A DNA stretch of 45,775 bases, the filler included, from Jimgerdemannia flammicorona (Eukaryota), in NCBI GenBank assembly GCA_003990765.1. It is 2 parts of 2 records of this genome, joined end to end, with 100 filler letters (N's around TTAATTAATTAA, not from the genome) between each part and the next. Parts side by side here need not be neighbours in the genome. Positions count along the whole stretch, not along the records: positions 22,940 to 45,775 come from RBNJ01001195.1; 1 more part is not named here. One strand, written 5' to 3'. The notes under the pieces were generated by a model. The model saw only the letters and a program-made list of their open reading frames with translations, was not told the DNA's origin and did not search any database. Shown here one piece after another: positions 12,709 through 45,775 of this stretch. The position numbers were made by a program, and so were the translations under genes. Numbering within the stretch: the first letter of the stretch is position 1; the number at the start of each line of letters is the position of its first letter.

Positions 12709-12709
12709 T

Positions 12710-17567: not shown

Positions 17568-17589
17568 AATCACCAGCCAATAGGCACCA
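17568..17589 (-). promoter_or_regulatory. Primer-binding site (TGGTGCCTATTGG..)
   Basis: Lies 3 nt after an LTR end (..TTACA ACT TGGTGCC on the minus strand). Same as 29411. Confidence 0.75.
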
Positions 17590-17592
17590 AGT

Positions 17593-17854: not shown

Positions 17855-18224
17855 TCTCCTAAATCTTTGCAAACATTAAAGTTTCTGCACTTTGTGGAAT
17901 ATGGCAGCTATTTATGAGGCTAAGCTATATTGGGAATCAGATTCAGGTACCATGATCAAATGTCTAATTCCTCTGTTTTATGTTACTAATTCAGATCAGC
18001 CATCACAATATCAATCAGTGGGAAGATATTATTGCTAGTAATGTCATCATATTCAGGGGTAGTAGGAGCAAGAAGATCAGGGGCTCTCTAATCTACGAGG
18101 TTCTTCTCTACAAAGTAGAGGACAAAGATGAGATCTTGAGAGAGTCTAATCTGGATACTGGGACCTTGGAATACTAAGATTAATCTCTATAAGAATTAAT
18201 CTAGATTATCCTGGAGAAATGAGA

Positions 18225-18721: not shown

Positions 18722-19349
18722 TTTGTTTATAGTGAGTCTTTGAACTATTTTGGGATTTTTGTGAGTCTTGTTTGAGTTACTGCTGCTGTAGTTCCTTAGT
18801 CCTTCTTTTATATTCCTTAAGATATCTATCTTGTAGTTGTGATGACTTATAATTGGTCATTATTACTCATCTTATAGTCTGGGTAAGTTATACCATATAA
18901 TCTTCTTATGCTCCAATCTGATGGCTTGTAAGAAAAGGCTGTCTTCTGTAATGATATCACTATTCTGAGGTCACCATTACATCTTCCTTCTGAATAAAGA
19001 TCTTCTCTTGAACATCCTTATTCATTAGTCCAGTCTGAAAAATTTACTGATCCTATAATCTCTGGTAGGGGGTCAAAAAGTGATATTTATTGACTGGTAT
19101 CTTTCTTATGTATTTTGGCATGATGGTGAAGAGTCACTCTCTTCATATAAAGCAAGGATCTAATTCTGATCTTGACTAATCAGTTGATGATTCAAACTCC
19201 TCTAGCTTTGAAAGTCTCACAGATGAGTAGTTACTAGTGCTATATTCCTTAGAGAATGGTCCAGACAGATTGTCTGCTGGTCACAAGACATGCTATTATA
19301 ATTTATAAACTAGAATCTTGTAGGCAGTCATCATGTTTTACTTCTCTTA

Positions 19350-22300: not shown

Positions 22301-22733
22301 CATAGTTCTCTAATAACTTGACTCCAATTCTAGTATCAAGTAGAGTAGTGGTCTGTGGTTCAAGGATAGTATCTTAGATATTGGTAAGGTTCATTCCTAT
22401 GGCTCCTTCAGTCTTGTATTCTGGGATCTTGGCTTTAGGGTAAAACTTCTTAATATTGAGAGTGATGTCTGGTTCTTATTCCTCCTCATCATTACTATCA
22501 GCTTGAAGCTCTGGAGGCTGGTCATCTTCTTCAGCTTCCCTTTTTGCTTTAGCTGCTTCTTGTTCATATCTTTGTTGACAGATTTTTCTAACTTCACTGA
22601 TATAAGACCAGTAGTTATTTAGATGTTCAGAGCAGTATATTCTAGTACCATGGGGACATCTTCCTTGAGGGGCATAGCTATTGATGATCTTGTTATATCA
22701 CTGCTTATCTGTAATCTTGGTTGTCTTACTCTT
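19350..22733 (-). pseudogene. pol: Gypsy pol (C/H motif, dUTPase, RT, RNase H, integrase), heavily mutated and cut by a poly(T) tract
   Basis: Colinear with 32700-36043: RSSL, GEVIDFNYTGE, GFGSTG; PRLYIDYRKLN, LDLFLGFYQ, YINDMIIFS; FILQTD; YHSQGNRQTERTN; RLKKYH. Confidence 0.9.
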
Positions 22734-22839: not shown

Positions 22840-22939
22840 NNNNNNNNNNNNNNNNNNNNNNNNNNNNNNNNNNNNNNNNNNNNTTAATTAATTAANNNNN
22901 NNNNNNNNNNNNNNNNNNNNNNNNNNNNNNNNNNNNNNN
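22840..22939. other. Artificial contig linker N44-TTAATTAATTAA-N44
   Basis: Exactly 100 bp, with a palindromic all-frame stop linker between N runs. Confidence 0.97.
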
Positions 22940-24157
22940 CCTTCTGTAGCAGTGGCACCCAACCTCCGCCCTGCAGTTCCTCAGCCCTCTTCAACCACCA
23001 AGCTCGCAAGCAGTGCAGCCTCTTAGGAAAATCCACCAGGCCAAGACCACCCCTAACTACCGGCATCGCAAGAGTATCCCAACTGATCTGGGACCTCCTT
23101 CCCGCCCAAATCCAATCCCTAGCCATCTTCATCAACTTCTTCACCACCCATGCTGGGAAGTCAAGGTGATATGCCACATACCACAGCTTGGGGAACCAAT
23201 ATACATTCAGAATTGTCACCCGCCACGCTAGAGAAATATGGCGCCCTCTCCATCCTCGCAGGGTCTCCCCCCAAATATCCACCCTGCTCTCCCACCAAAC
23301 TCGTGGCAAGACAGAACCATATACAGAGAGGAAGACGCCCAGGTACCACACCACCTCACCAGCAGGGACAATTGTTCCAATGACGTCCCCACCCACTAGC
23401 CCATTCCCTAGCACCATTGTCTCACACTTATGCCAGTTGAGCTTCGCCCTGGAGTGTGCCTCATACCATTCCACAGTCTCCTGAAGCACCTCGACATCCG
23501 CCACAGACCCAAGTCCAACCACCATATCATCAGCAAAGGCCCCCACCTTCCACTCGATGCCATAAATGGAGAGCCCTACCACCCTCCGGCAAATCCTATC
23601 CATCAGCTGCTCCAGCAAAAGGGCATAGAGAATAGGGGACAGAGGGTCCCCCTGAGGAACTCCTCTTCCCAAGGAGAATGCCCTCCCATGGTGACCATTA
23701 CACGTCAGAGCTGCCCTACTACCCTCCAGCAGACTCAGCATAGAGGCCCTAAACCTTGGGGGAACCCCAATCCGGTCTAACACCTTGCCCAGCCACACCC
23801 GCCGTACCCTGTCATAGGCCTTCTCCTGATCCAAAAAGACCAACCTTCTATCCAGCCCACAGGCCCGGACCCCTTCAATGACTCCATGGACCCATGCCAT
23901 CCCATCCCTTATGAGTCTGTCCCTAACAAAGCCCCGCTGCTCCTCCCCCAGCACCTGTTGGGCAACTTTCTGTAGCCTCGCAACAATCACCTTAGTCACC
24001 ATTTTCCTGTCCATATCCAGAAGCATGATCGGCCTCCAGTTCTTCCAGTCCTCTCTTCTCCCCTTATCTTTGAACAATAGGGCCACCAGCCCAAGATCCT
24101 GCTCCCCAACCCACTCACCACTCTGAAGGACATGGTCACAGAGATCAGCCATCTCCC
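22940..24157 (-). mobile_element. Young 5'-truncated LINE (family C); RT frame open up to the gap
   Basis: ORF 22884..24215: WRPIMLLDMDRK, FLDQEKAYDRV, GVPQGDPLSP, AFADDM. No stops, and many CpGs retained. Confidence 0.92.
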
Positions 24158-26560
24158 TCCTCCTCAGTAATCTCTTGCAGCCTCTTTCAGCTTGATCTAC
24201 TGGATGTCTATTCACACGCCCTCATGTACCCAGCCTATGATCTTTCCCTGAATGTCTGCCTCCCAAGAGTCCCACAACACCTTCTCAGCCAGCAGGAAGG
24301 AGTTAAGACACCAATGTCCAGATCCATCTCTACTTCTCTCAAACTGCCCCTACCCTAACTATCCCCAGTGGTCTGACCATGGGCACCACTTCACCTCCAG
24401 TATTCTCCAAACATCCAGACCCCAGCATTTGGCTGTCAGAATCCAGTCAATCCTTATCCTAAGGCCATTCACCCAATGCATATAAATCCTCTTTTTTCTC
24501 CACTGTATTCAACTCATATCTCCTAAGGAGCTAAGGTTCTCCACCTCCTCCTATGCATTCAGGCTATCACTTCTTCCACCAGTACTCCTCTCTCCATCTG
24601 TTCTATCCAACTGAGGATTCTACACCATATTGAAATCCACTTCCAGAATATCCACCCCATCTTTCAGAAATATGCCCTCCTCCAAAAGACCTCCCTCTCC
24701 TTATCAACCTCATACCCCTCCTCCTCTAGAAGAATTGCAAGCACCTCCACCTTCAGTGTCTCTACTACTCCATTACTATGCAGAATCTGTGTTCAATGCT
24801 CCTTGCTCATCACTCTCAGGTCCACTTCTCTCAACTCTTCAGCTGCAAAGTTATTCATCATCTGATACATCAACAGTAGGTTTCCCACCTTCTTCTCTCC
24901 TGGCATCACTAGCCTCTCAGTATCCAGCATTGTGGTATTTGTCTTTACACTCACAGTCTTATCTCACCTCTCCTCCAGGATATCCACCAGCTCATCCTCA
25001 CCAACTGCAACTATCTGTTCCCCTTTCACTATGTCAGGAACTCTAAAGTATACTCACTGGGTACTATACATCAGCACATCTTCTGCCATCTTGCTTCTCT
25101 CAGCTGGACCTCTCCTGACTAGAGGGGGAGTATTATTCAATACTTCTTCCCAGATATTGAATGTACCATCAGTGCAAGGGTCATTGTGTGGTATCTTCCT
25201 GGCCCCATCCAGGCCCTTCTCTCCATTCTCTCCTCTCTCACTAGCCCAGACACTCACTTTAGCACCTCTAGACTCCTCAGCTCCACCAGCATTCTTCTTT
25301 TCCCCTCCTTCTATGCTTGCCAACAACTCCCTCTATCTCTTGTACTCTTGAGGTCTCTTCTATTGCCTCTTGTCAGTATGAATATGTTTTCCATCCACAA
25401 TTTCCAAATATATAGACTCTTCATACATCTTTCAGACCTTTATCCTCTACTCTACTATCCTGGTTATCTCCTCTAGAGCCTCCAACAGATTCTTCTCCTC
25501 CTTCTCACTCTCTTTCATCATTTACACCTTACAGATGGAGGCCCCCCACAATATAACAAAAGGCCAGTTGCTCATCTTCCCTATAGCCTCTCTCCCTGCT
25601 AGTCTAATCCTGATGTCAAAATTATCAGTTCTGAAAGTATTCCCCTCCTATATCTGGAATCCAATATTGACTACATTACCATACTCAGCCATCACCTTCT
25701 CTGCCCTCCTCCTATTCTCAACCTTCATCACCATAGGAACCCCCTTCACCAGTAACTGAACCACTCTGGGGTCTGATCTCAAATACTGCACCATAGAGAC
25801 CACTATCTCTCCTACTGCCACTCAAGTCTTCAAAGCTTCCTCTAGTAGACCTGCCTCCTCAAAACCCACCTCAACCCCCTCCAATTCCTTCAGAAACATC
25901 ACTGAGGCAGCTCCAGCCACTTGCTCCAATATAATCCCTAGAATCATCTTTACCATTACTGCTAAGCTCTGGAAGTACAAGATTACAGCAAACTCCAAAA
26001 TTGACTTCTTGAGTAATAGTGCCACTGCTAGCCCTATTATACTATCAGCCAGGTCTCCTTTCCTCTTTGGTCCCACCTGCCCAGTTTTACCATCAATAGT
26101 CACATATGGATTTTTTTCTAGATTCCCAGTCATGCTACCATCAGTAGTCTCCCCCCTACTCCTGGCAGCTGCTCTACCAGCCCTTCCACCCACCAGTTGA
26201 TGAGCTACATCTTCCACTTCTTCTTCTCTCTGCTTTTCTATTCACTCTGTCTGCCCATCACAAGATCCAACAAGCCATCTGCTAGTCTTCAGCATATTGG
26301 CTAAGCTTCTCCTCTTCCACCCTCCTACTTCTTCCCCAGTACTGTTACTACTATCTGAACTGCCCTGCCCACTTAGACCACTAAGAGACCCAATCCCTAA
26401 TCCATACCATCATCCAACATATTGCTAGTCAAAGGCTCCAGGTCCACTCAACCTAGTACACATGTTGGCTTACTTATTGGTTACTATGAGCTTAGTATCT
26501 TTCTCCAATAAATGCTCTGAAAGCATGTTGGAGAAGTGTGTGTTACATGAGTGGTAACTG
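24158..26560 (-). mobile_element. Older LINE 5' half (5'UTR, ORF1, part of EN), heavily mutated, with an internal deletion (approximate boundaries)
   Basis: Homologous to ~40050-43050 (LLKKSILEFAV, GVEVGFEEAG, DGTFN, VDFNMV, RIDWILTA, WSDH). Confidence 0.85.
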
Positions 26561-27052: not shown

Positions 27053-28560
27053 TTAAGACCAAAAGTATATATACCAAATATACTACTTGTCAAAATAGAG
27101 AACCACATCAAATCAGATATATAACAATAACTCTCAAAAATATACCCAACTATAATCTAACTACATCTGTACTGACATTTTGAATGCCATTGTCAACAGA
27201 GCTACAGTTCCTCTATCCCTCATGAATATCTATAGTCTAATACCTCTCTATTTTATAGAAGCCCAATGGAATACTCTGAACATACTTAGCAAAGCCTCCT
27301 GATTTAGACAAATCTCAGCTACTACTAGATCAGTCACCTCCTAAAAGATATGGTTAGCTATCACTATGATATAGATATTACCAAAATGTCTCAATATCTG
27401 AAACTTACTACTCACAAATACTGAGAATTATTTTATAAGTAAAGTACCTTTATTCTCTATCTCTGAGTTACAACTACTGAAATAGTTACTACTCTGTCCT
27501 ATGGCCAAATCAATGATATGGTACCAGAACTCAACCACAAGTATATCAAATATGCCCAAACTATAGACAGACCCTTCCTATACTCTAATGAATAAATCCT
27601 GCAAATGCCCCAAGTTGGATATGCTATAAAGGATATCTATGATATAATCCAGCTTGATAATGATGAAGCAGAAGACAATGATCTCTCTGATACTAATATG
27701 ATCTCTAGTCAAGGATCTCTGCCAACCCTGATCACCCTGCCAATTTTGCCAATGAACTCACAATAGTTTAAAACCATCTATAAGACCTATTGGAATAATG
27801 ACTATTGGTATGATTACTAATCTGCATTTATACTTAATTACTTCAACTATAATAAAGAGACTGGAGAACATAACTTATACCTATAGACAACTCTCAAGAT
27901 CAAACCAAACAAAATAAACTACAGCTGCCAGCATACTATATGTAATCCTATAATAAATAGTACTATAATCTACCAAAGATATACTGATCATAAATATAAT
28001 GAAAATGAAAATTATATATCCCTTCTCTACCCACCAACATTCTACTCAGCATGTAAGATAGATTATATGATTCTGTAAGATATTAACATGGTTCCAACCT
28101 ACTATTCCATAAATAAACAGAGAGATATAATTCAAGAACCACTCTTTCTAAATAACTACTTCATCAGAGATAATGTCATCGATAGTGATCCTATTGAAGA
28201 ATACCCAGACAGCATTTAAATCTATCAATATCTTAGCAGTCATTAGTATAGTTAGATTAGCCTTATACTATACGACTGTATACTGACTCAGTAGTCAGAT
28301 GATCTCTTGATATATCAGTTTACTATTATATTATATGACTGTATTCTGACTCATCAGAGTTCTAAGTACTAGACCTATATTCAGCATAGTTCAGATTGTC
28401 TCCCATTAGTATAAATATCCACTCCCTCTGATCTCAAAAACGCAGACAGAAATATAGATAAGTATATAGTCAAGAATACTTCTCTATATAAATATCTCTT
28501 TACATACTACTCCTAGTATAGCTATATTATAAATAGCAAATAAACCAATTTAATAGTCAA
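27053..28560 (+). mobile_element. 3' remnant of a fourth Gypsy: ORF3 copy D plus an LTR-like tail, very degenerate (approximate boundaries)
   Basis: From 27320: YY*ISHLL..TTHKY*ELFYK*STFILYL*VTTTEIVTTLSYGQIND matches the ORF3 motif. An acidic tail runs to ~28218 and TATAAATA is at ~28409. Confidence 0.55.
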
Positions 28561-28941: not shown

Positions 28942-29407
28942 TGTAACAGTATAGCTAGATTTGGAAGAAGGAAATAGAGAACAGACACTTGATTGCACCC
29001 AGTCCCAAAGTAGTATAGCCACATAGTTAGCAGTTCTTGATTTTGCCACTTGCTAAATATTTCACAAAGTACAAGATTGAGCTTCTCAATATAGTATAGC
29101 ATTTTGCAACTGGCAAAATATTTCACAAAGTGTTAAATGACTCATAAAATTAGCCATGTAACCCAGTAACCATCTCATAGCTAGCAAACTTGTATAAATA
29201 ACCCAGTATCTTCGAGTGAATAAACCTCAGATCGAAATAGTTCAAAGTAAAGAGATAGCAAAGGAACTAGTAAGGCTGTGGACAGATACACTTCAAACTC
29301 ACCCACCCTCCCCTACAACTCAAAGGACTCTGAGGAGTCAGAGAAGATCAAGTTTCAAGATACAGAAATCTGATGTACTTTCAAGAGTAAGCATCTGCTA
29401 TGATACA
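28942..29407 (+). repeat. 5' LTR
   Basis: TGTAACAG..TGATACA, with TATAAATAA ~29192 and AATAAA ~29219. Matches 36532-36997. Confidence 0.96.
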
Positions 29408-29410
29408 ACT

Positions 29411-29521: not shown

Positions 29522-32260
29522 ATAGATATGAGACCACCAGTATTCCATGGATATACCTCAGATAAATCAATCATCACCTTCATTGACGATTTCGAGCAGT
29601 ATACCACTGTAAGAACTCTGACAGCAGCACAGCAAGTAGCCCTCATGCTCTTCAGCCTATGAGGTCCTGCCAGAGCAGCATTCATAGCCGCAACCTATGT
29701 AGGAAATGATGCCGATGCTATACTGACAGCACAGAAGACCTGTCTCCGAAATAAATATTATACAGATGAGATCAAGCAAGCCCTGAAGGATCAGCTCAAT
29801 ATAATATGCCAAGGAATGAGTGAGGATCCAAACACATTCTATACCAGAATTCGATATCAGATAGTTCTTGCAAACTATGCTGCTGCTATCCAAGATCAAG
29901 TAGCTGAAGCAACCTTCATGAAAGGAGTCCATCCAGAAATAGCCATGGCCATCCACTCATCACCAGTGATTCTGGATCTGCCACAAAAGGTCACCTATGC
30001 TCAGTGATACTAGATAGCCAGACACCCACAAGACCATACAATGGAGAGAGTTACAGGAGTCAGAATCGAGGCACCTAAGTTAATCAGTGTGATCTCCACT
30101 ATAATGATCAATCAAAACACACCTCAGCCCAAAGCTACAAAGCAGCAAAAGAACAGTGACCCTTTGGAGAAACTTACCAAGAGGTTCGTGGAAATGACTG
30201 CTGAATTGGGGGATGTAGTAAAGGAGATCAGAGGATGGGGGGAGGCCCTTTGAGGTTGGGGAGACCACCATATCTCTCTAGTAGGGTGGGTAGAAATTTT
30301 GAATGTGTACTGGTTTCCCAAGCTGTGGTATGTGGCCTACCACCTTGACTTCCCAGCTTGGGTGGTGAAGAGGCTGACGAAGGTGGCTAGAGATTGGATT
30401 TGGGCAGGGCAGAGGTCCCAGATCAGTTGGGATACTCTTGTGACACTGGTGGTCAGGGGAGATCTTGGCCTTGTAGATTTCCCTAAGAGGTTGCACTGCT
30501 TGTGAGTCTGGTGGTTGAAGAGAACAGCTGAATTGCAAGGAGGGGGTTGAGTGCCTCTGTTGCAGAAGGTGTGGGAGATGTGAACCTCCCCTCAATGATC
30601 CTCTGGAGACCTACTCTCTTTGGTGGGGCTCAAAGAAATTCAGAGGCTGAGATTTAGGGGCTTTTGGTGGGGAGTAGTCAATGGAGTACACCAAATTGGT
30701 CTGCGCTGGCAAGACAATGAGGGGGAGATGTTGTGGGGACCTCATATGTGGTGATGAGATAGATTGCTACTGAGGGGTGCTCCACTTGCTGCTTTTGATA
30801 TTGGGGACAGAGTGGAGTGTCAGCAGGGTCTTGGCCAGGATCTTTGGCAAAGTGGCTGGCAGGCAGTCGGGATTGGCGAGGAGTGGGACTGGGCAGGTAT
30901 CTGGTCTTAGAGTGCTAAGGTACGGTGGTGGCTTCCCCCCAAGTTCTGGGTAGTGTGGTGGCAAATGCTGTGGTGGAATGTTATGCTGAATTTCTGTACT
31001 GGGCATCTGGTAGATGGTGGCTGTTTCGATTATGAGTAGTGTTACAATGTAGGGCAAGCTGGGGGTTTGGTGCAGACACTGGAATATTGGCTGGGAGAGT
31101 GTGAGGTTTTGGGGGACTTTTGGGTTGAAATAGGAGATAGGCTGGGTGTGGGGTGCAGGCTGGTGGGTGAGGGGGATCGCTGGGAGGACTTGAGGTCTCA
31201 GCTAATGGGGAGGGTGGGGGATAGTTGGCTCACTGTTGGGTGGGTGTTAGTAGTTTGGGTGGGATTGGCAGGACATTGGTTATTTGTGTTTGAGGAGGGG
31301 CAGCAGGTGAGCCTGTAGGAGAAGGTCTTAAGGTGGGAGGAGCTGCTGGGAGATCTGATGACTGGATGGTGGATATAGGTTGGGGTCCTTCAGGGGGGCG
31401 ATGGTAAGGTTTGGTGACAAGGATATGTGAACAGAGTCATGGGAGAGTGGAAATTGTTTTTGATAGGGTGGTGTTTCATCGAGAAGGGGTAGGGGGGAGG
31501 GTCCCCCCTAGGGGGATAGGGTAGGGGGTGGGTTCACTGTACTTATATGGGATAGATAGGTATAATAAAGGGAGAGTCTGAGTGACTATATAAAAAAAAA
31601 AAAGGAGATCAGAGGAAGAGACCACCACCCTGTCCAGAAGTTTTCTGCCACCTCAGACAAGAAGAAAGGCACCTACTATACTTGTGGAGAAGAAGGCCAC
31701 TACTCCTATGAATGCATGAGTGAAACCAAGTACAAGGCTCAACCAAGCAATGCTATATGAAACAAGGAGCAGGCCAATATAATTACCTTCAAGAAAATTA
31801 GAGATTCTGATAAAGAAGAATGGGAGGCCTATCCTGCTCAGACTACCAAGAAGGATGTTTGCAAGGAACCCTACAAGAGACCACCAGGAAGACCCAAGAA
31901 GAACCCAGTAGAAAAGCAGATGGAAACGGCCACCAAAAACCAAGCTGAAGAGATGGACCAAGATATGGAGCTGGAATAAGCAGTTCAAGATATTATCCAA
32001 GTAACTACCTCAGCCAGTGAAGGAGAAAAAGAAAAGAAACTTCGCAAGACCAAGACTTTTAAGTATGATATCTTCAAGGACCTTAGCTAACAAAAGGTTA
32101 ATGCAACCTTTGGTCAGCTTGCAGAAATCCCAACATTCAGACAACAAATGAGGTTCGGACTTGCCAGAACAACCAAGAAGCAAGGATGGAAGATAACTGA
32201 GGCCAATAACATTCAAGAGGACTCAGGAGAAGAAAGTGAAGACAATTGCACATCCTTTGC
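29522..32260 (+). pseudogene. gag: gag (capsid-like region, zinc knuckle, AT-hook-like motif), interrupted by a LINE
   Basis: MRPPVFHGY.., EDPNTFYTRI.., YYTCGEEGHYSYEC, KRPPGRPKK. Confidence 0.88.
30236..31600 (+). mobile_element. 5'-truncated LINE (family C) inserted in Gypsy gag
   Basis: Perfect 16-bp TSD AAAGGAGATCAGAGGA (30220-30235 / 31601-31616), AATAAA and poly(A). Encodes the ORF2 C-terminal half (NVYWFPKLWY). Confidence 0.96.
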
Positions 32261-35200
32261 CTATACTACCTGCCAGATTGAGGACCGAGTCTTTGAAGCC
32301 ATCATCGATACAGGAGCAGGAGGATGTCTCATCACTAAGAAAGCAGTAGACCACCTAGGCTGGGAGATAGAAGAAGCCACGAAATTGGTGTTTGTTACAG
32401 CTGATGGAATATGAGTAACATCTCTGGTAAAGATCTGGGATGTATCCATCAAGTTTGGAGAAGCCACCATCCCAGTAGATGTCATAATCACCAATGCAAC
32501 CAACTATGATATCCTCATTGGCAATCAATGGCTTCACAAAGCCAAGGCAATGATCGATCTCAGTGTACAGAAGATGCAAATCATCTACCAGGGAAAGAAG
32601 ATCAGAATTCCAATCAATGTCCACAAAGGAGTCCACCTGGAAATAGAGGAAGAGCAAGAAGAAGAAGCCTACATGGTTACTATAAAGAAAGGAAAAGATA
32701 AGCAGTGGACAGAGGAAGAATGGTACAAAAGGATTGCAGACAGATATGTCCCACTAGGAAGGTGCCCCCATGGTGAAAGAATGTACTATGCCCAGCACTT
32801 GGATTGCTGCTACTCCTGCATAATCAAAGTAAAAAAGATCTCCAACAAGCCAAAAAAGAACCAGGAGGAACCAGAAGATGGACCACCAGAGCTATTGAAT
32901 GACAGTGATGATGAAGAAGACATCACAGTCATGATACGAAGGATCCACCCCAATGCAGTCTTGCCACAGTAAAATTGGGGAATGCAGCAGGAATGGACCT
33001 ATCTATCACAATACACACAATCCTTGAACCGCAAACCACACTATGCTGGGAACAGAAATTGAAGTAACCATCCCACCAAATCATGTCAGAATCCTCAAAA
33101 CAAGGAGCAGCTTGGCGAAAAGCAAAATATCCATAGAAGGAGGAGTCATTAATTCAGATTATACAGTAGAAATCCTCCTCCTCACCAGGAATCATAATCC
33201 AACATTCCCATTTGAAGTAAAGAAGAAGGATCAGCTGGCACAAATGCTCATCCTACCTGTCCTTAATCCAAGAATCAAGGAAGTTGCAAACATCAGACAA
33301 ACTCAGTGAGGAAGAGCTGGATTCGGCTCTACAGGAAGAGGAGTCCTTGTATCAACCAAGATTATAGAATTGGAGCACAAGAAGGAGGAAAGCCAAGACA
33401 AACACACTTATGTAATCAGAAAGAACTTTCCCCTAAGGAAGGAGTTGCAGAACCTCTTGCATACATTTGAAGATATACTGGCTACAGATTTCAAGGACAT
33501 CAAGACTAAGAAACCCTTGCACTATCAATACATCAATACTGGAGATGCAAAACCAATCTATCAAAAAGCCTACCCCATTCTGCTAGCATACAGAGAATGG
33601 CTCAAGACTGAAATCAAGGAAATGGAGAAATCCAGTATCATTAAGGAAGCCAGCAGCCCTTGGTCTTCACCTATTGTCCTTGTACCAAAGAAAGGAAGCC
33701 AACCAGGAGAATTTGCACCAAGACTCTGCACAGACTATAGAAGACTCAACGAGGTCACAGAGAAGGATAGACAACCATTGCCCAACATTGGTGACATTCT
33801 TATCATGCTGGGGAATGAATCACGATTTTACACCACTCTGGATCTGTTCTCAGGATTCTACCAAATTGGTCTTACACCTGAAGCCAGCAAAAGATCAGTC
33901 TTCATCACTCCTAATGGAATCTATGTCTATCTCCACATGCCCTTTGGAATGTGCAATGCACTAGCAAGCTTCCAGCGAATGATGAATAGCATCTTCAGGG
34001 ATGTTATAGAAAAATGGATAATGGTATACATGGATGATGTGATCATCTTCAGCTGAACAGCCAAGGAGTACTTGGAATATATCAAGGAAATCCTCAGAAG
34101 GCTTTGCAAAAATGGCCTCTACATCAAGCCCAAGAAATGTAAATTTGGAGAAGAAGAAATCACATACCTTGGACACATCATTAACCACAAAGGAATAAAT
34201 ACAGATCCCACAAAGATCAAGGCAGTAGCAGTATATCCGGTACCCACCAGTGTCACTGAAGCCTGAGCCTTCATGGGACTAGCATCCTATTACAGGAGAT
34301 TTAATCGAAGATTCTCCCATATTGCCAGCCCTATCTATGATCTGTTCAGAAAAGAGGTCAAGTTCCAGTGGACATAACAACAGTAACTAGCCTTTGATGA
34401 ACTCAAGATCAGACTGACCCAGGCCCAAATCTTGAGAAGACCTGACTGGACACAAGAATTTATTCTACAGACAGATGTCTGTACAATGGGACTTAGAGCT
34501 ATTCTTACACAGAAGAAGAATGGTGCTGAGTATGTAGTAGCCTATCTCAGCCAAGGTACTCGTGGAGCAGAGCAGTCCTATGAGCCATACAAGCTAGATT
34601 GTCTTGCAGTCATCTGGGCTGTAGAGAAGTTCCACTATTACCTGGCAGGAAAACACTTCACCATCCAGACAGACCACTCAGCACTCACCTGGTTGCTCAC
34701 CACCAGTGAACCCAAAGGAATCTATGCCTGATGGATCATGAAGCTGCAAGTATATAATGCCACAATCACTCACCGCCCCAGAAGAATCAATGCCAATACT
34801 GACGCCCTCTCACAGACACCCCAATGGACCCCACCCTAACAAAATCACCATGAATAGGGAGCTGTACTATGGAATCATCAGCTACCTGAGGCAGTGAAAG
34901 ATGCCCCTGCATCTGGAAGAATGGACAAAAACAATTATTAATTGGAAATGGAAACAATTTGAAACTGATGGAGAAATACTCAAGAAAGGACAACAATTAG
35001 TCATCCCCAAGCACTGGAAGAATCAAGTAATGAAAGAAGTACATGAATAAGGCCACATAGGAGGAACAAATACATATGACAAAGCAAGAAGAACCATGTG
35101 GTGGCCTGGAATGGAAGAAGATATCAGACAATTCACCAGAACCTGTGACAAATGCCAGAAACAGAAACAAGACCAATGAAACCAGGCCCTGGGATCAACA

Positions 35201-36043
35201 TGCATAGAACCAGTACCATTTGCCCACATAGTAATGGATGTAATTGGCCCTCTACCCTTGACCCTGACTGGTAACCGATATATCATTGTCATCATAGACC
35301 TTTTTATGAAATAGATAGAAGCAGGACCCCTCAAGGAAGCCAATGCATAGTCAATCACCGATTTCTTTCACAAGGAAATCATCTGCTGGTTCAAGACCCC
35401 AACACAAGTAACTACAGATAAAGGAATATAATTTGTGAACCAGCTCGTTGAGGTTCCCTACAAGAAGTACAAGATCCAGCACATTTGGACCACAGCCTAT
35501 CACCCCCAAGGAAACAGACAAGTAGAAAGGACCAACAAGACCCTCAAGAATGTTATTGCCAAGATCAGCGATAACTATGAAAACTGGGATCACTATCTGC
35601 CAATAGCATTATCTGCTCTCTGAGATATCAGATTACAAAGTACCCACTTTACCCCCCAGAAGATGCTATTCAGAGAAGAAAGTTCTAGTGGAAGTTTGTC
35701 AGCAAATAATGATGCAGTCTGGAAGCATGTAGACACAGAGATATGGAGATTACATCAAATTAGGAAAAAGGCAGAGGATACCATAATCAAGGCATAGGCA
35801 CTATAATGGAGCAATACAGAAAAGATCCACAAGCCCCTAGAGATTATTAAGATAGGAGACGAAGTCCTGGTGTACCAGAACATGATAGAAGCTTCTTGGT
35901 CATGAAAACTGGAGTCCAAGTGGGAAGGACCTTACCTGGTGCAAGATATAAAAGGGACCACTTTCCAACTATGAAAGCCCTCAGGCACAATAATCCCCAC
36001 CACCATTCACTGAAACCAACTCAAGAAATACCATGGCCAGTAA
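32261..36043 (+). pseudogene. pol: pol: protease, dUTPase, RT, RNase H, integrase (GPY motif; no chromodomain seen)
   Basis: IIDTGAGG; PWSSPIVLVPKK, RLCTDYRRLN, LDLFSGFYQI, MPFGMCNA, YMDDVIIFS; FILQTD; H..GH/CDKC, MDVIGPL, YHPQGNRQVERTN, KWEGPY. Confidence 0.95.
32925..33335 (+). pseudogene. dut: dUTPase domain between protease and RT
   Basis: All five trimeric dUTPase motifs: AAGMDL, RSSLA, GVINSDYT, DQLAQ, *GRAGFGSTG. Confidence 0.93.
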
Positions 36044-36494
36044 CAAAAGTACTGCAATGGCACTCAAGATCACTAGCACTGCCCAAAGAGCCATCGAGAG
36101 ACAATGGCATACCACCGAGCCTCTGACCATAGAAGAGTCTTATGATAGTATCCAAAGCATTGTACAGACTCATCTCCCTCAAATCTCACACTTCAAGGTC
36201 TATCAGCATCGAAACGAATTTCAAGAGTACTTCAAACTTGGCCAAGTACTCAACTAAGACCCAGAAATGACCAAAGAAAATTGGATCACAGAATGCCAGC
36301 TCTCCTATTCCCAGATCACCATTGCTAAGAGAATCCACAAGCTATTTAGAGAGGATGAACCAGCACTAGCCCATCTACGAGGAGTGACTCTCTCAGACTA
36401 TGACCAAGTCAGGTGATATCATTGGGAAACAGTAATGCAACAAATTGCACAGTATAAGACCATACAGACCATTGAAGCCTGGGAGTTTGAATAG
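36033..36494 (+). pseudogene. Gypsy accessory ORF3, copy A (~153 codons, two internal stops)
   Basis: ATG overlaps the pol end. QEYFKLGQVL..IAKRIHKLFREDEPALAHLRGVTLSDY. Confidence 0.75.
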
Positions 36495-36521: not shown

Positions 36522-36530
36522 AGGAGGAAG
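36522..36530 (+). promoter_or_regulatory. Polypurine tract
   Basis: AGGAGGAAG, 1 nt before the 3' LTR. Confidence 0.7.
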
Positions 36531-36531: not shown

Positions 36532-36997
36532 TGTGACAGTATAGCCAGATTTGGAAGAAGAAAATAGGGAACAGATACTTGATCGCACTCAGTCCCAAAG
36601 TAGTATAGCCACATAGTTAGCAGTCCTCGATTTTGCCACTTGCTAAATATTTTGCAAAGTGTGAGATCGAGCTTCTCAATATGGTATAGCATTTTACAAC
36701 TGGTGAAATATTTCGCAAAGTATTAAATGACTCATAAACTTAGCTATGTAACCCAGTAAACATCTCATAGCTAGCAAACTTGTATAAATAACTCAGTATC
36801 TTCGAGTGAATAAACCTCAGATCGAAATAGTTCAAAGCAAAGAGATAGCAAAAGAACTAGTAAGCCTGCAGGCAGATATACTTCAAACTCACCCACCCTC
36901 CCCTGCAACTCAAAGGACTCTGAGGAGTCAGAGAAGATCAAGTTTCAAGATACAGAAATCCAACATACTTTCAAGAGTAAGTATCTGCTATGTTACA
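36532..36997 (+). repeat. 3' LTR
   Basis: TGTGACAG..TGTTACA, 466 bp. Confidence 0.96.
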
Positions 36998-37001
36998 ATA
37001 T

Positions 37002-37509: not shown

Positions 37510-40004
37510 TTCACTGGTAACATTTGGGTGACACAAGATTCAGACATCACTTTTACTACATTTTCAGTGCTTAGCAACTAGCAACATGGATGGCATTGAT
37601 CGAACTAGTGAGCATACTGGCCAGGGGGGTGATGGCGCCTTTGGCTGGCAGCAGGTGGGGAGGAGGAGAGAAGGTTTGGGGATGCCGGGGGCCTCGATGA
37701 CTAGCTGAGGTTCTGGTGGTGGAGGGAGGGGAGGGCTGAGGCAGAGAGGAGGGAAGAGGTCGACCTTCGCAGACAAGGTCAGAATGGGCAAATGGCCTCA
37801 GGCCTTGATAGTTGGCTGGGCCTGGGGATAGCATCGACAGCTGCTGCTGGGGGACCGGGAGGTGTACCCAGGGGAGTCTCAGGTGGCAGGGGAGGAGCAG
37901 GAGTAGGGGCTGGAGATGTGACTGTTGATGGGGCTGTGACTGGGGATCTGGCAAAAAATCCAGATGTGATAGCGGTTGGCAATTCAGGACTGGGCATGGG
38001 TACAAGGCCCGGAGAACTGGCGGATGGGGTGATGGGCATGGTGTCAGCCCCATTACTCAAGAAGTCAAGGTTGGAATTCGCAGTCACCATGTGCTTCCAA
38101 GGTTGGCAGTGATGGTGAGGATGATTTTGGGGCTGGTGGCGCAGGAGGCTAAGGGAGCAGCATTGGTGAAGTTTTTGAGGGGAAAGAAAGGGATTGAGGT
38201 GGGGTTTGAGGAGGAAGATGCCTTGTTGGCAGCCATGGAGAAGGGGGTGATGGTTGGTGGGGTCATGGTCCCTATGGCCCAGTGCATGCGCTGGGACCCC
38301 CAAGTGGTGCAGTTGACAGTGTTGGATCTCCCTACCATGTCAAAGGAGAGGACCAGGGAGTTAGTTGTGGAGGCAATTAAGGAGTATGGCAAGATTGTTG
38401 ATGTTGGGTTCAAGGTCTGGGAGGGAACAGAGCTTAGAACTGGTGATGTTGGTGTCAGGGTGAGGCTGGCTGGGAAGGAGAATACAGGGAAGTCGAGAGA
38501 CTGGCCAGCAACATTGAGGTGGGGACTGGTGGAGTGTAAGGTCGCAAGGGTGAAGGGGACCCAGGAGGAGGAGGAGGATCTGTTAGAGGCTCTGGAGGAT
38601 CTGGAAGGGGTGGTTGCGAGGAGGAGATTGACTTGGAAGGAGTTTGAGGCCAGAACGGTGGTGGGGGAGAAGGATGGGAAGAGGGTCCGGATGGAGAAGG
38701 GGGCCTGGGAGAAGATACAGGGGAGGAGGATCCAGAAGGAGCTGCTGGTGAATTTGAGGGGGGGTAGGGCTGGTAGAAGCTCAGGTGAGGGAGTTACAGG
38801 GTTGCAGGAGAGTGCCTGGGCTGAGGGAGGAGAGATGGCCCAGGGTGGGGCTCAGATTGGAGTGGGGGAGGAGTGGGAGGGCAATTTGGAGGTGGATGCT
38901 GAAATGGGTGAAGGTGTGTGCCCTCAGTATAGTGTTCTGGATGGAGCAGAGGGGGAGGAGGAGCTGATGGATGTGCCGGATGAAGAGTGGGATGAGTCCG
39001 TGAGAAGGGGCATGATGGTGGGCCCTGAGGTGGATGGGGGTCAAATTGCTCAGGGTGCGGCAGAGGCGGTGGATGAGGAGAAGTGGATGTGGAAGACCCT
39101 GGAAGGGGTAGTGGCTGAAGAGCTTGGGGGTGAGGACTTCTAGGTGATGGAGGAGAGGCACTGGGAGGAGATTCTTTAGGGGGAGGAGGTGCCAAGGAAG
39201 ATGAGGAATGAGATCCTGGCTGTCCTCCTGGAGTCGGTTGAATATCAAGTTGATGATCAGCGGGAGGGGGAACTTAGGAAGATTGCGAGTGAGAGGGCAC
39301 TTTTCTTGTGGAACTTAAGGAAGGGACTAGAGAAGTGGCGCACAGTCTGCTTGGACTACCGGGCAGATATGGAGGAAGTGGACAGGGTGGAATGTCAGGA
39401 AATCTTGGGGGCACTGGAGGCTCAGGATATTGCGGAGGGTGACTTGGAAGCTGAACAGCACTTGGATCTGGCGGGAGATGAGATGAGCATGGAATTATAG
39501 GTTGGGGTCTCTGTCACAACATTTCTTCAGTATGAACAGTACAACTAAGATATTCTTGTTGAACATTAATAGGTTATGGGGATCGGCTAGGAGGAAATAT
39601 ATATTTGGTTAGCTCAAGGGACTGGATGTAGACCTCTTTTTGTTGCAGGATATTCGTTATGAGGTGGATGTAGACTTACAGGATTGGACTAAGGAATGGG
39701 GGGATGTGGCAGTTTGGAGGGAGAAAGTGTGTATTCTTGTTCGGAAGAGGATGGGGGACATTGGGAACATTGGACATTGGGGGTCTCGGGTGGTGTGGGG
39801 AGTGTGGAAGAGGCCTGAATGAGGCCCACTGACAGTTGGGTCTTGTTACTGCCCCGCTGAGAGACAGGAGAGGGTGGGTCGGATCTGCCAACTGAATGAG
39901 GCTGGTGTATTGGGAGAGATTGGGCTAAACTGTTTAGGGGGTGACTTCAACATGGTACAAGATAAGAAGATGGACAGAACGGATGGAGGAAGAGGCGTGC
40001 GGGG
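37510..40004 (+). mobile_element. LINE (family B) 5' portion, ORF1 plus EN N-terminus, interrupted by the next LINE (approximate boundaries)
   Basis: ORF1 at 37586-39500. ORF2 from 39532 (MNSTTKIFLLNIN, LLQD, GSCYCP, GGDFNMV) breaks at ~40004. Confidence 0.9.
37586..39500 (+). pseudogene. LINE ORF1
   Basis: ORFs 37792..38112, 38091..39143 and 39189..39500 are homologous to the other ORF1s. Confidence 0.85.
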
Positions 40005-40080
40005 TCAGGTTCAACATTCAGGTTACACAATCTTTTGGCAACACTTTCAACACAGTTTCTGGAGACAAGCTACTAGTATC

Positions 40081-42123
40081 ATGGCTACCGACAAGAATCC
40101 TGAGGTGTGTACTGGGCAGGGTGGCCCTGGAGCGTTTGGATGGCAGTATGTGGGGAGAGGACCTGGCTTGGGGGGAAGCATGAGGGGCCTGCTGGCAGGA
40201 GGACGTGGTGGAGGAGGTGGCAGGGCTGGAGGGCAAGGGTCTGCTGGCAACAATGGGGGAAGATCTGGGCTCCCGAGCTTCATGGACAAGGTCAAGGGGA
40301 GTGGGTGGCCAGCTGGTAATAGGGCTGGTGCTGCTGAGGGGAAGGGCAAGGTGAGTCTAGGGAGGAGAGGTAGTGCTCTGGCTGGGAGTGCAGGAGTAGG
40401 GGCTGGAGGGGCAGTGGCTGGGGGTGTGACTGCTGATGGGGGTGTGACAGGGAATCAGGAAAAAAAATGAGATGTGACAGCTGATGGCCAGGTGGGGCAG
40501 GGGGTCCCAATGCGGAAGGGGGACCTGGCCGATGGTATTATGGGGCTGGCAGTGGCACCATTACTCAAAAAGTCAATCTCGGAGTTTGCGGTGACTCTGT
40601 GCTTCTGAGGCTTAGGGGTGACAGTGAGGATGGTCTTGGGGCTTATCTCGAAGCAGGTGGCTGGGCCAGCTTCGGTGAAATTCCTGAAGGGTCTGGAGGG
40701 AGTTGAGGTGGGCTTTGAGGAGGCAGGCCCACTGGAAGAGGTGCTGAGGGCAGGAGTGGCAGTTGGTGAGGTGGTGATCCCCATGGTACGCTGTTTGAGG
40801 TGGGACCCCAGGGTGGTGCAGCTGCTGATGAAGGGGGTGTCCACAGTGACGAAGGAGGAGACAAGGAGGAGGGTAGAGGAGGTGATGGTGGAGTATGGAG
40901 ATGTGGTGGATATTGGCTTCCAGGTGTGAGAGGGGATGATGATCAGGACTGGTGACATTGATGTCAGGATTCGGCTGGCAGGGAGGGAGGCCACAGGGAA
41001 GGCTGGTGACTGGCCCTCAGTGTTGATGTGGGGGGCCTTCATTTGTAAGGTATCGAGGGTGAAGGGGAGTGAGGAGGAGGAGGAGGATTTGTTAGAGGCA
41101 TTGGAGGAGATGAGTGGTGCAGTGGAGCGGCAGGCAAAGGCCTGGAAGCTTTATGAGGAGTCAACACACTTGGAGATTGTGGAGGGGAAGCATATCCGCA
41201 CTGACAAGAGGCAGTGAGAGTGGGCTCAGGGGTGCTTGAGACAGAGGGAGCTCTTGGTGAGTATGACTGGAGGGGAGAAGAGGAAGGTTGATGGGGCTGA
41301 AGGGTCTGGAGGCGTCAAAGCCAGTGTATGGGCTAGCGAAGACAGCAAGGAGCTGGTGGTGACAGAAGAATGGGCTGCGAAGGTACTGGGCAGGGATCCC
41401 TATGCAGATGGTACTTTCGAGGTCTGAGAGGAGGAGTCGGATAGTACCCCCCCCCCATTTATCAGGAGGGGCCCGGTAGGGCGGAGAGGGGCAGCAGAAG
41501 ATGTACTGATGAAGGGGGCCCAGCGGGTTACCTTTGGGGTCCCAGATGTGGTGAAAGGGGGCCAGGTGGTGGCTGTTGGTGAGGATGAGCTGGTGGACGT
41601 CCCAGAAGAGGAGTGGAATGAGGATGCCAGTGTGGGTGCAGATACTACAATACTGGATACAGGGCAGCCAGGGACCCCTGGAGGGAAGGAGATCAGGAAT
41701 CTGCTGTGGATGAGCAAGGTGATGAATAACCTTGCAGCTGAGGAGTTGGGGGAAGTGGATCTGAGGGTTATGCCGGAGGAGCACTGGGCACAGATTCTGC
41801 AAGGTGAGGGAGTGGTGGAGGCACTGTAGATGGAGATTCTTATGATACTGCTGGAGGAAGAGGGTTATGAGGTGGATGAGGTGAGGAAGGCGGAGCTGGT
41901 AGTTGTTGCAGGTGAGCGGGTGGCCTACTGTTGGGCAGAATGCCATGGTTTGCAATTTTGGCAGGAGGCCTGTAGGGAGTATAGGGAGGACTTTGAGAAG
42001 AAAGAGGATGGGGCAATGGTTGAACTTCTGGAGGGATTGGAGGCACAGGGCGCTGAGAGGAAGGAACTGGCTGCAGGACATGACTTGGATTTGGCACAGG
42101 TGGACTTGAGTGCAGATTTGTAG
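40081..42123 (+). pseudogene. LINE ORF1 with stops and a frameshift
   Basis: GVEVGFEEAG, RCLRWDP, EYGDVVDIGF, RTGDIDVRIRL, and an acidic tail. Confidence 0.85.
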
Positions 42124-42154
42124 AGGAGAGATTTAATCTTTAACAATATTCCTC

Positions 42155-45100
42155 ATGAACAGTACAACTAACATATTATCTCTCAATGTGAATGGTCTTT
42201 GAGGATCTGGGTGGCGTAAGAACATTTTTACTTGGCTAAAGGGATTGGAGGCTGATCTCTTTTTACTGCAGGATGTACGGTGTGAGGATGAGGATGATCG
42301 GGTGGAATAGACTAAGGAATGGGATGGGGCTACTGCTTGGTTTGGAAAGGTGGCAATTCTGTTGAAGAAGGGTAGAGGAGATTTGAAAGGGATCAAGAAC
42401 TGGGGAGATTGATTGGTCTGGGGTGAATGGCACCAGCCAGGGTAGGAATCAGTGAGAGTGGGCTCATGCTACTGCCTGGCAGCTAGGGGAGAGAGGATTG
42501 CATGGATCAAGGAACTACTAGAGGAGGGTGTTCTCTTGGAGGATGGGGTTGATGTTCTTGGTGGTGATTTTAACATGGTTCGAGATGTACAGTTGGATAG
42601 AACTGATGGAGGAAGAAATGCTGGTGGGAGGAGTGGTGGTCTGGATGCATGGGAGGAGGTGGAAAACCTTAGCTCCTTAGGGGATATGGACCGAACATGG
42701 TGGGGCAACACCAGGGTCTACACACACTGGGTGAATAGCTTAGGAACAAGGATTGACTGGATTCTGACAGCTGAATATTGGGGTGCTGATGTCTGGAAGA
42801 CTTTGGAGGTGGTGTGGTGCCTGTGGTCTGATTACTGGGGACTGATTGGCCAGGGGCAGTTTGGGGGAAGTGGAGATGGACCTGGACATTGGCGTCTTAA
42901 CTCCTCCCTGCTGGCCGAGAAGGGGTTGTGGGACTCATGGATAGAGGACATACAGGCAAAGATTCCATTTTGGAGGCAGAAGGGTTTATCTGTGGGTGTC
43001 CATTGGATGAGATTAAAGGAGGCTGCGAGGGTTTATTGGGGAGGAGCTGGAAGGGAGGCAGGAAGGAGGAGGAGGCAAATACAGTCTGCCTCTGATAGGC
43101 TGGGGAGATTGTAGTTGGAGTGGGCAGATTTGCTTGCGTCTGATAAGGTGGAGGATTGGAGATTAGTGAGGGCGAAATTGGAGGTTGTAGAACTGCAACA
43201 GGTGTTGCAAGAGGAGGAGGAGATTCATATGCGGGGTATGGCAGCCAGGCTTAGATGGCAGGGGCTTGAGGAGGTGGAGCGGCCTACTAGGTACTTGTCT
43301 AGGCTCCTCAAAGCCAGGCAGGTGAGGCATAGGTGGGATGGGATCTTGGATGCTGAGGGAGAGTTGGTGCATGGCACACAGCAGATTCTGGGAGTGTTGA
43401 AGGAGAATTGGCAGGGTCTGTGGAGTGAGGAAGAAGGGGGTGCTGATGCCGAGGCAATTGGTGACACACTGGAAGAGTGGGAGCCACCACAGGTAGAGGG
43501 GCTGGGTGACTTGACCTTACCTGTCCAGGAGGAGGAGATACAGGGTATCCTGGCAGCGACTAAGCTTGGGACGGTGCCAGGGGAGGATGGGTTACCGTGG
43601 GACTTCTGGAAGAGATGGTAGAAGTCCCAGAGATGCTGGGTGAGATGGCGGCCCTCTGTGACCATGTTCTTCTGAATGGCATGTGGGTTGGTGAGCAGGA
43701 ATTAGGGCTGGTTGCCCTATTGTACAAAGATATGGGCCAGCATTAGGATTGGAAGAACTGGAGGCCAATCATGCTGCTGGATATGGATTAGAAGTTGGTG
43801 ACTAAGGTGATTGTTGCAAGGCTACAGAAGGTTGCTCAACAGGTGCTGGGGGAGGAGCAGCGGGGCTTTGTAGGTGGTAGACTTATAAGAGATTGATCTG
43901 CCTGGGTACATGGCATTATTGAAGGAGCCCGAGCCTGTGGACTGGATGGGAGACTGGTCTTTTTGGATCAAGAGAAGGCCTACAACCATGTTCGGCAGGT
44001 TTGGTTGGGCAAGGTACTGGACAGGATCGGCATTCCACCATGGTTTCAGGCCTCTATGTTGAGTTTGTTGGAAGGGAGTCAAGCGGCACTGATGTGTAAT
44101 GGTCACAGGGGTATGGCATTCCCCTTGGGGAGAGGAGTCCCTCAGGGGGACCCACTGTCCCCTATTCTTTATGCGCTCTCCTTAGAACCTTTGATGGAAA
44201 AGATCTGTAAGAAGGTGACTAGGCTCTCTGTATATGATGTGGAATGGAAGGTGGGGGCCTTTGCAGATGACATGGTAGTTGGACTTGGATCAGTAGCGGA
44301 TGTAGAGGCTCTTCGGGCAACAGTGGAGTGGTATGAGGCATACTCTAGAGCAAAGCTCAACTGGTATAAGTGTGAGACAATAGTGCTGGGGAATGGGCTA
44401 GTGGGAGAGGATGTCATTGGAACAATTGTCCACACATGAGAGGTGGTGCGGTACCTAGGTATCTTCCTCTCTGTATATGGATCAGTCCTACTATGAATAT
44501 GGAGAGAGGAGGGTGGCCATTTGGGGAGAGGCTCTAAAAGGCTGGGGGGGCCATCACATCTCCCTGGCAGGGAGGGTGGCAATTCTGAATGTATACTGGT
44601 TCCCCAAGCTGTGGTATGTGGCATATCACTTAGACTTTCCTGCTTGGGTGGTGAAGAGGCTGATGAAACTGGTTAGGGATTGGATTTGAGCTGGTAGAAA
44701 GGCCCAGATCAGTTGGGATACCCTTGTCGAGCCAGTGCTTAGGGGAGGCCTGGGCCTTGTGGATTTCCCTAAGCGTCTACACTGCCTGCGAGCTTGGTGG
44801 TTGAGAAGGGTGGCTGATCTACAGGGTGGAGGTTGGGTGCCGTTGATGAAGAAGGTGTGGGAGATGAGAGTCTCCCCCCGGGGGTCCACAGGGGATCTAC
44901 TCACTTTGGTGGGTCTGAATGGAAGCCAACGGTTATGGTATATGGCTTCTAGTGGGGAGTGGTTGATGGGGCGCACCGGATAGGCCTGCACTGGTGTGGA
45001 AATGAGGGGGAGGAGATATGGGGTCCAGCCATGTGGCGATGGGATTGTTTGCTTCTAGGGGGAGTTCCACTAGCTGAGTTTGACATTGGCGATGGAGTAG

Positions 45101-45775
45101 AGTGTCAGCGGCGAATTGGCCAGGATCTTTGGCCAAGTAGCTGGCAGGTGGTGGGGTTTGGTGAAGAGTGGGATTGGGCAAGGATCTGGTCTTGGAGTGC
45201 GGAGGTCCGGCAGTGGCTCCCTCCTAAGTTCTGGGTAGTGTGGTGGCGCATGTTGCAGAGGAATGTTATGTTGAACTTCTATGCTGGGCATCTGGTGGAT
45301 GGGGGTCAGCTGGATTGTGTGGAGTGTTATGATGTTGGGCAAGTTGGGGGTTTTATGCAAATGCCGGAACATTGGCTGGGGGAGTGTGAGGTTCTGGGCG
45401 ACTTTTGGATAGCTGTAGGGGACCGCCTTGGGGTTGAAAGGAGACCAGATGGGGAGAGAGGTCGCTGGGAAGATCTGGAATCTAGACTTGTGGGAGGTGT
45501 CCGTAATATATAGCTTACTGTAGGATGGGTTGTGGCAGTGTGGGTGGGGTTGGCTGGACATTGACTCTTTGTTTTTGAGGAGGGGAGACAGATGGGGATA
45601 TGGGAGAAGTTATTGAGATGGAAGGAGTTGGTGGCAGATTTGTTGACAGGGTGGTGGGTTGGGTGGGGATTGCAAGGTGGGCGATGTCGCCATCAGGTGG
45701 AAGGGATATGTGAGCAGAGTGATGGGCAGGTGGTGATGGTGTTTGATAAAGTGGTTTTTCATCGAGAAGGGGTAG
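42155..45775 (+). pseudogene. LINE ORF2 (APE-RT-CCHC) with stops
   Basis: ILSLNVNGL, LLQD, GGDFN, TRIDW, WSDY, PGEDGLPWDFW, DQEKAY, GVPQGDPLSP, FADDM, CVEC..MPEHWLGEC. Confidence 0.95.

Follow-up and report, generated by a model that had tools for sequence, protein, structure and literature searches.

The DNA analysed here, referred to as the window, is a stretch of 45,775 nucleotides (nt) from Jimgerdemannia flammicorona (GenBank assembly GCA_003990765.1), in which no host gene was recognised and whose content consists of nested, decayed transposable elements. Its plus strand carries a complete Ty3/Gypsy retrotransposon, element 1, bounded by two long terminal repeats (LTRs) of the form TG...CA at 28942–29409 and 36532–36999 (91.7% identity) and organised in the order LTR, primer-binding site, gag, protease, dUTPase, reverse transcriptase (RT), RNase H, integrase, ORF3, polypurine tract (PPT) and LTR. 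The gag-to-integrase region (31680–36042) runs in three frames interrupted by stops and gave Pfam matches to a CCHC knuckle, an aspartic protease, a dUTPase placed between protease and RT, an RT, an RNase H, an integrase zinc domain and an integrase core. No chromodomain was reported by Pfam in the three frames, and the C-terminal module of the integrase is followed directly by the end of the protein. The subject of this work is ORF3, the open reading frame (ORF) located next to this region. In element 1 it occupies 36033–36494 (copy 1; 153 codons plus a stop, with two premature stops) and begins at an ATG in an ACCATGG context, overlapping the pol stop codon (TAA, 36040–36042) in the +1 frame. 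The PPT, AGGAGGAAG (36522–36530), lies 27 nt past the ORF3 stop and directly before the 3' LTR. The position on the sense strand between pol and the PPT or 3' LTR, as proposed in an earlier sequence-only reading of the window, was found in element 1.

Three ORF3 relics in the window

The sequence-only reading had claimed four ORF3 copies sharing a protein motif, of which three proved to be real and homologous. A hidden Markov model (HMM) constructed from 30 outside homologues, with zero window sequences, was run on the six-frame translation of the window and matched at 36033–36473 (E 1.1e-46), 14921–15643 (E 1.2e-60) and 18221–18676 (E 5.1e-42), together with a frame-shifted continuation of the third match at 17986–18222 (E 1.2e-12). 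The sole other match in the window was noise (8529–8576, E 3.5). Pairwise BLASTP on read-through peptides, with X at stops, aligned copy 2 with copy 3 at E 1e-10 (33/142 identical) and copy 1 with copy 2 at E 8e-5 (20/54 identical), and the alignment of copy 1 with copy 3 was marginal (E 0.022). The claimed fourth copy, an AT-rich region on the plus strand at 27140–28218, found no such support and was rejected: its best BLASTP value against copies 1–3 was E 2.6, no HMM match was obtained in 26.2–28.9 kb at E ≤ 10 with filters off, and the region resembled elements 1–3 neither in DNA nor in translation (best E 0.48 and 0.84, respectively). The shared motif itself corresponds to the core of the family, in which the A and F of the stretch A-x-R-I-H-x-x-F are at least 90% conserved across 38 aligned sequences.

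Each of the three copies belongs to a different subfamily and has a close intact relative. Copy 1 (subfamily A), whose limits are exactly those proposed, is identical to the intact 153-aa (amino acid) protein P0024 at 123/153 positions. Copy 2 (subfamily C), also with the proposed limits, lies on the minus strand at 14729–15655 and comprises 308 codons with three premature stops, being identical to the intact P0005 at 221/301 positions. Copy 3 (subfamily B; minus strand, 17920–18721) extends further than had been claimed, to ~17920; it starts with an ATG at 18721, is frameshifted near 18220, carries several premature stops and terminates at 17920–17922, and its N-terminal part is identical to P0020 at 110/167 positions. 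The description of ORF3 as directly downstream of integrase applies to copy 1 and fails for copy 3, in which the pol match ends at 19359 and the ATG comes ~640 nt later, separated from pol by a spacer that has stops in every frame. The premature stops of the window copies fall at sense codons of their nearest intact relatives. The window ORF3s are three inactivated relics of three subfamilies.

Homologues of ORF3 in environmental assemblies

A length-unrestricted search with a three-sequence profile among 1.84 billion representatives yielded 14 proteins at E ≤ 1e-3, 13 of which are credible representative clusters (56–342 aa) aligned along the whole core. The remaining match, P0013, a repetitive protein of 1686 aa, covered 42 profile positions only and was set aside; it looks bacterial and matched in five stretches (E 1.9e-7), and its repeat resembles the F-R...A-I-x-H-L-x-G of the core, either by chance or through a very distant link. 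A word-indexed search with the 13 sequences gave 21 clusters at E ≤ 1e-3, and a search with copy 2 identified an intact 325-aa protein with 71% identity. All members read originate from JGI/IMG, ENA, Logan or SRC environmental assemblies and are unnamed or annotated as 'hypothetical protein', none of the cluster members read being of NCBI or UniRef origin. P0025, P0044 and P0052 are encoded on contigs of 7.8–8.0 kb, and P0039 on one of 19.4 kb. The full-length homologues all start with M, and no form fused to pol was present among the 14 matches.

Scanning of metagenomes with seven closer sequences provided two loci, L001 and L002, with intact, M-started ORFs of ~323 and 291 aa, respectively. 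ORF3 of L001 is followed by an LTR-like sequence with TATA and AATAAA, and in L002 a PPT-like tract directly after the ORF3 stop precedes a TG start. ORF3 of L002 lies at least 375 nt past pol, with stops in all frames between. Another match from the same scan, L003, was judged spurious because it runs antisense to a 284-aa gene on a bacterial contig.

The subfamilies are 13–25% identical to one another, with a fixed core length. The domain is uncatalogued in Pfam, where 0 families were returned for the four window peptides and P0005 and nothing above noise for 30 members, the set used for all Pfam searches of the family below. No related solved structure was found by sequence profile in the PDB (one match, E 0.48), the ESM Atlas gave only unnamed or unrelated clusters, and scans of viral contigs revealed no relative. 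These searches produced no cellular or longer homologue save the unrelated-looking repetitive 1686-aa protein mentioned above. No description of this protein was found in full-text searches of the literature, most subscription papers being outside reach. ORF3 is a new protein family that fills a known niche, that of the ORF3s of LTR retrotransposons.

Predicted structure and dimerisation of ORF3

ORF3 proteins are 150–340 aa long and consist of a conserved core of ~88 residues (87–94 in full-length rows; isoelectric point (pI) 5.3–10.8) and a fast-evolving acidic tail. Charges of tails and cores were tabulated for 35 of the 38 rows, the other 3 having too short a core. Every one of the 29 aligned members whose tail reaches 25 aa has a net negative tail, with charges from -1 to -34. 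Tail length varies from 27 to >200 aa, and no motif is common to all subfamilies.

An AlphaFold2 model of P0024 (subfamily A, 153 aa), built with the 38-row alignment, has a mean predicted local distance difference test score (pLDDT) of 90.7 and a predicted template modelling score (pTM) of 0.82, and displays seven helices, one of them 36 residues long (residues 40–75). The model of P0006 (subfamily B) shows the same core (pLDDT ~90) with a poorly ordered tail. Both predicted models are all-helical, in agreement with the earlier proposal of a small helical protein. The suggestion that ORF3 is not Env-like was also borne out: a 19-aa window with a Kyte–Doolittle mean of at least 1.6 occurs in 1/38 members only, in the variable tail, so that the 38 family sequences have no conserved membrane segment, and the predicted fold is soluble and helical. 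No fold match to an Env fusion glycoprotein was obtained, and on the sequence side one isolated weak Pfam match to herpesvirus gB appeared (1/30 members, E 0.15).

Foldseek comparison of either model with the PDB gave 0 matches at E ≤ 0.001. The same was true of BFVD, where the DUF3102 rows (probability 0.41 and 0.20) can be taken as no more than a lead. The best recurring superposition over the ORF3 core in the two models is with the helix-turn-helix (HTH) DNA-binding domains of ParB, SopB, VirB and KorB, a likeness that may represent a common helical arrangement only. No ParB-type Pfam family was found for the 30 members at E ≤ 10, single-sequence hmmscan being insensitive to remote homology, and no ParB-type PDB chain was retrieved by sequence profile.

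Homodimer modelling gave a score of 0.45, compared with 0.00 for the best control, and placed the interface at residues 40–76, where the long helices pack in an antiparallel fashion. A mark of 0.45 was reached by 21/30 solved one-chain pairs and by 0/23 solved single chains, and in the eukaryotic set by 17/29 pairs and 0/30 single chains. The runs showed at least 65% contact agreement, with a partner pLDDT of at least 65. The model supports pairing and suggests that ORF3 may form an antiparallel homodimer.

Coding constraint and decay of the elements

Comparison of L001 with copy 3 using the Nei–Gojobori method gave proportions of nonsynonymous (pN) and synonymous (pS) differences of 0.257 and 0.845, respectively, and comparison of L001 with L002 gave pN 0.398 and pS 0.75. 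Since the synonymous sites are saturated, this comparison shows constraint and the ratio is only bounded. With pN well below pS and intact ORFs in many clusters, the earlier claim of a selected, conserved coding sequence is upheld, and ORF3 is very probably a real accessory gene of the element lineage.

The window as a whole has undergone strong decay. CpG observed/expected is 0.0–0.44 in every 1.5-kb bin, TpG and CpA are in excess, and the most decayed sequences are AT-rich blocks at ~5.5–8 kb, 11–14 kb and 26.2–29 kb. Classical repeat-induced point mutation (RIP) lowers the ratio (CpA+TpG)/(ApC+GpT), for which a threshold of ~1.03 is used. The ratio of 1.12–1.83 throughout the window points the opposite way, and classical RIP was rejected. 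The CpG depletion with excess of TpG and CpA indicates methylation-driven decay instead.

Candidate internal promoter of ORF3

Counting both strands, the window contains four occurrences of the TATA box TATAAAAG, against 2.36 expected. Two of the four are on the coding strand upstream of an ORF3 start codon: one at 35947–35954 (+), 86 nt 5' of the copy 1 ATG and within the last integrase codons, and the other at 18805–18812 (-), 91 nt ahead of the start codon in copy 3. The sole TATAAAAG in L001 and in L002 lies 65 and 80 nt upstream of the respective ATG, so that the box is found 65–91 nt before the start codon in 3/4 subfamilies. This placement is suggestive of transcription from an internal promoter, the resulting subgenomic ORF3 mRNA presumably ending at the poly(A) signal of the LTR. 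Reinitiation after pol is not a general rule, because ORF3 is located ~640 nt (copy 3) and at least 375 nt (L002) past pol.

L001 and L002 were also considered as subgenomic transcripts themselves and rejected as such. The first bases of L001 are those of the TATA box, and both contigs lack a poly(A) end, which leaves them uninformative on transcripts.

The LTRs, otherwise hardly alignable, have in common a core of ~55 nt in which a TATA box, GTATAAATA, is followed ~17 nt on by GTGAATAAACCTCAG with the poly(A) signal AATAAA. This core box was located at 29177–29230, 36767–36820, 14484–14541 and 17716–17774 in the window and at 1210–1269 in L001. Copies 2 and 3 each have an LTR core box downstream of their ORF3.

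Lineage of the carrier elements and comparison with known extra ORFs

The carriers of ORF3 are a chromodomain-less Ty3/Gypsy lineage with a dUTPase. The nearest RT relatives are environmental sequences with a dUTPase domain (65%, 48% and 46% identity). Among the best 120, the named relatives are animal elements (36–45% identity) and one metagenome-assembled record, with no named fungal relative among these 120.

The sequence-only reading had seen in ORF3 and the dUTPase the mark of a 'complex' Gypsy lineage. ORF3 is indeed accompanied by a dUTPase in element 1, and the concept is not new because extra ORFs have already been presented for fungal (PMC2864245) and rotifer (PMC5408684) elements. 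LTR retrotransposons of bdelloid rotifers are described as having a dUTPase domain and varied ORF3s after pol (PMC5408684). Like element 1, they are Gypsy-like and carry a dUTPase and extra non-Env types of ORF after pol, with modular exchange; in the account given there, the rotifer ORF3s are Env-like, GDSL esterases or DEDDy exonucleases (PMC5408684), families that were not detected in our 30 members. For fungal Gypsy elements, the legend of Fig. 3 of PMC2864245 lists an 'additional ORF with unknown function', and PosPlaTy3-5 has its dUTPase between protease and RT, as does element 1. The comparison extends to that legend and the accompanying section, in which neither a sequence nor a description of the ORF is given (PMC2864245). 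The extra ORFs of plant Tat/Athila elements, likewise of unknown function and in Ty3/Gypsy elements, are reported to have PMD, coiled-coil, Tr28 or Env-like features (PMC4408406), which were undetected in ORF3 by Pfam. The seven weak Pfam families returned for the 30 members do not include GDSL esterase, DEDDy exonuclease, PMD or Tr28.

Elements 2 and 3 and remaining content of the window

Copy 2 belongs to element 2 (14729–17773, minus strand), of which the LTR part, gag and protease lie at 15932–17773 and are 83–87% identical to element 1 in DNA. No dUTPase, RT, RNase H or integrase is present ahead of its ORF3, and the element is an internally deleted derivative with the order LTR, gag, protease, ORF3 and LTR, in which ORF3 was kept. 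Despite the 83–87% identity in gag and protease, the ORF3 of element 1 is of subfamily A and that of element 2 of subfamily C. The closeness of the two elements in gag and protease, combined with different ORF3 subfamilies, indicates modular exchange of ORF3 and suggests recombination between lineages as the origin of this mismatch.

Copy 3 follows the pol of element 3 (minus strand, 19359–22370, from part of the dUTPase to the end of the integrase), which is 66.7% identical to element 1 in DNA. The 5' part of element 3 is lost at an assembly gap of 88 N (22840–22927), adjoined by a long A/T homopolymer tract. The order on the minus strand is ORF3 of element 3, an LTR core and then element 2. 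There is apparently one LTR between the ORF3 of element 3 and the gag of element 2 (17500–17920), which would constitute a tandem sharing a single LTR.

LINE-like (long interspersed nuclear element-like) elements, with APE endonuclease and RT by Pfam, were observed at 1–5000, 22887–26164 (-) and 37900–45775. A further LINE-like repeat at 30236–31492 (+) is foreign sequence inside the gag region of element 1, with a second occurrence at 44522–45775. The LINE-like elements display an extreme strand asymmetry, the magnitude of the GC skew being ~0.3–0.55 over kilobases. Two direct repeats, 8168–8671 and 12215–12709, are 77–87% identical and ~4.04 kb apart with AT-rich sequence between them. Two plus-strand stop-to-stop ORFs between the repeats had no Pfam match, and the pair (8168–12709) possibly delimits a non-autonomous LTR element of small size.

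Proposed role of ORF3

Taken together, four features of ORF3 are best fitted by a self-encoded regulator: a helical core that is predicted to dimerise and weakly resembles an HTH, a variable tail of acidic character, a position just ahead of the 3' LTR and a putative promoter for ORF3 alone. In foamy viruses, an internal promoter in the upstream coding region drives the 3' transactivator gene tas, located before the 3' LTR. A small regulator gene at the 3' end with its own promoter can serve as a working model for ORF3, although Tas differs from ORF3 in having no sequence or fold similarity to it (no BFVD match at E ≤ 0.001). By this model, a subgenomic mRNA dedicated to ORF3 would begin at the TATA box located 65–91 nt before the ATG, end at the poly(A) signal of the 3' LTR and serve for translation of the protein. 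The protein would dimerise via its long helix and the dimer would act in the nucleus as a nucleic-acid-binding regulator, with the acidic tail recruiting host machinery. By analogy with the foamy-virus internal promoter and Tas, ORF3 may transactivate the promoters of the element that encodes it. We estimate the probability of this mechanism as a whole, an element-encoded dimeric regulator produced from an internal promoter, at roughly one in three (0.35). A bolder version, which we consider unlikely, is a two-promoter circuit in which the internal TATA promoter at the pol end would make a dimeric DNA-binding transactivator of previously unseen helical fold that switches on the LTR; ORF3 would then be an independently evolved counterpart of foamy-virus Tas and a new family of DNA-binding domains.

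Several observations weigh against the regulator. With respect to the promoter, copy 2 (subfamily C) has a variant of TATAAAAG and not the exact box, and the box of copy 1 lies inside integrase codons, so that its presence may reflect protein coding. The motif was picked after inspection, the putative promoter and subgenomic mRNA were proposed from the DNA sequence, and the context outside the window consists of two short contigs only (L001 and L002). With respect to the protein, the core is basic only in part of the family: its pI is 5.3–5.9 in subfamily B and 10.7 in the P0025 group, an unexpected spread if all members share a surface that binds DNA. In subfamily A, that of copy 1, the tail measures only 27 aa with a charge of -1. 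Moreover, saturation of synonymous sites leaves no proper dN/dS ratio (nonsynonymous to synonymous substitution rates).

Among the other explanations, the best placed, though still improbable in our estimation, is an adaptor for integration targeting or tethering, with the core binding the pre-integration complex and the acidic tail binding chromatin or a host factor. Such an adaptor would suit an element for which no chromodomain was reported and whose integrase stops right after the C-terminal module, and the predicted dimer and the acidic tail with short hydrophobic motifs fit it as well. It is at odds with a tail that ranges from 27 to >200 aa and has no motif common to all subfamilies, and it explains a dedicated promoter no better than the regulator does.

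A role in export, stabilisation or packaging of genomic RNA is slightly less probable. It has a precedent in the Gypsy-type element Cer1 of Caenorhabditis elegans, which is reported to encode a novel, lineage-restricted protein, CERV, needed for export of the genomic RNA (PMC10309623), and an HTH-like helical core could bind RNA. CERV and ORF3 would then be alike as novel lineage-restricted accessory proteins of Gypsy-type elements with a regulatory role (PMC10309623). By its description, however, CERV has 517 aa and is produced from a spliced mRNA of five exons, overlapping gag and sharing exons with it (PMC10309623), whereas ORF3 has 150–340 aa, appears unspliced and follows pol. In addition, Pfam detected no RNA-binding family in the 30 members, and general RNA binding would be hard to reconcile with the acidic cores in subfamily B.

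Somewhat lower still we rank a factor that would counteract host silencing, or interact with the host in another way, without binding nucleic acid. A fast-evolving tail on a conserved core would be consistent with this, as would the apparent exchange of ORF3 subfamilies between the otherwise close elements 1 and 2, and the heavy CpG decay of all elements implies that the host silences them. This evidence is circumstantial, and no similarity to known suppressors of silencing was found by Pfam on the 30 members or in BFVD.

That ORF3 is a captured fragment of a host gene or a chance ORF with no function for the element is very improbable. LTR elements do take up foreign ORFs, as documented for rotifers (PMC5408684), but no cellular homologue was found apart from the repetitive 1686-aa protein, the core keeps a fixed length across subfamilies at 13–25% identity, pN is much below pS and the predicted fold is confident. 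Least credible is the absence of any separate gene, ORF3 being a C-terminal extension of Pol made by frameshifting or a decayed env remnant: a +1 overlap between ORF3 and the pol stop exists in copy 1, but the stop-containing spacers of copy 3 and L002, the M-started full-length homologues, the lack of a pol-fused form among the 14 matches and the lack of a conserved membrane segment all speak against it.

Significance

Accessory genes separate 'simple' from 'complex' retroelements, and few of them are understood outside retroviruses. ORF3 recurs, is split into subfamilies, is intact in environmental DNA and has a confidently predicted fold without a close solved neighbour. If it is only a lineage-specific adaptor, its profile would still mark this Gypsy lineage. 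Should it prove to be a self-encoded regulator driven by its own promoter, ORF3 would represent a compact system by which a retrotransposon controls its own expression, and would add a new domain to the catalogue used for annotating transposable elements.

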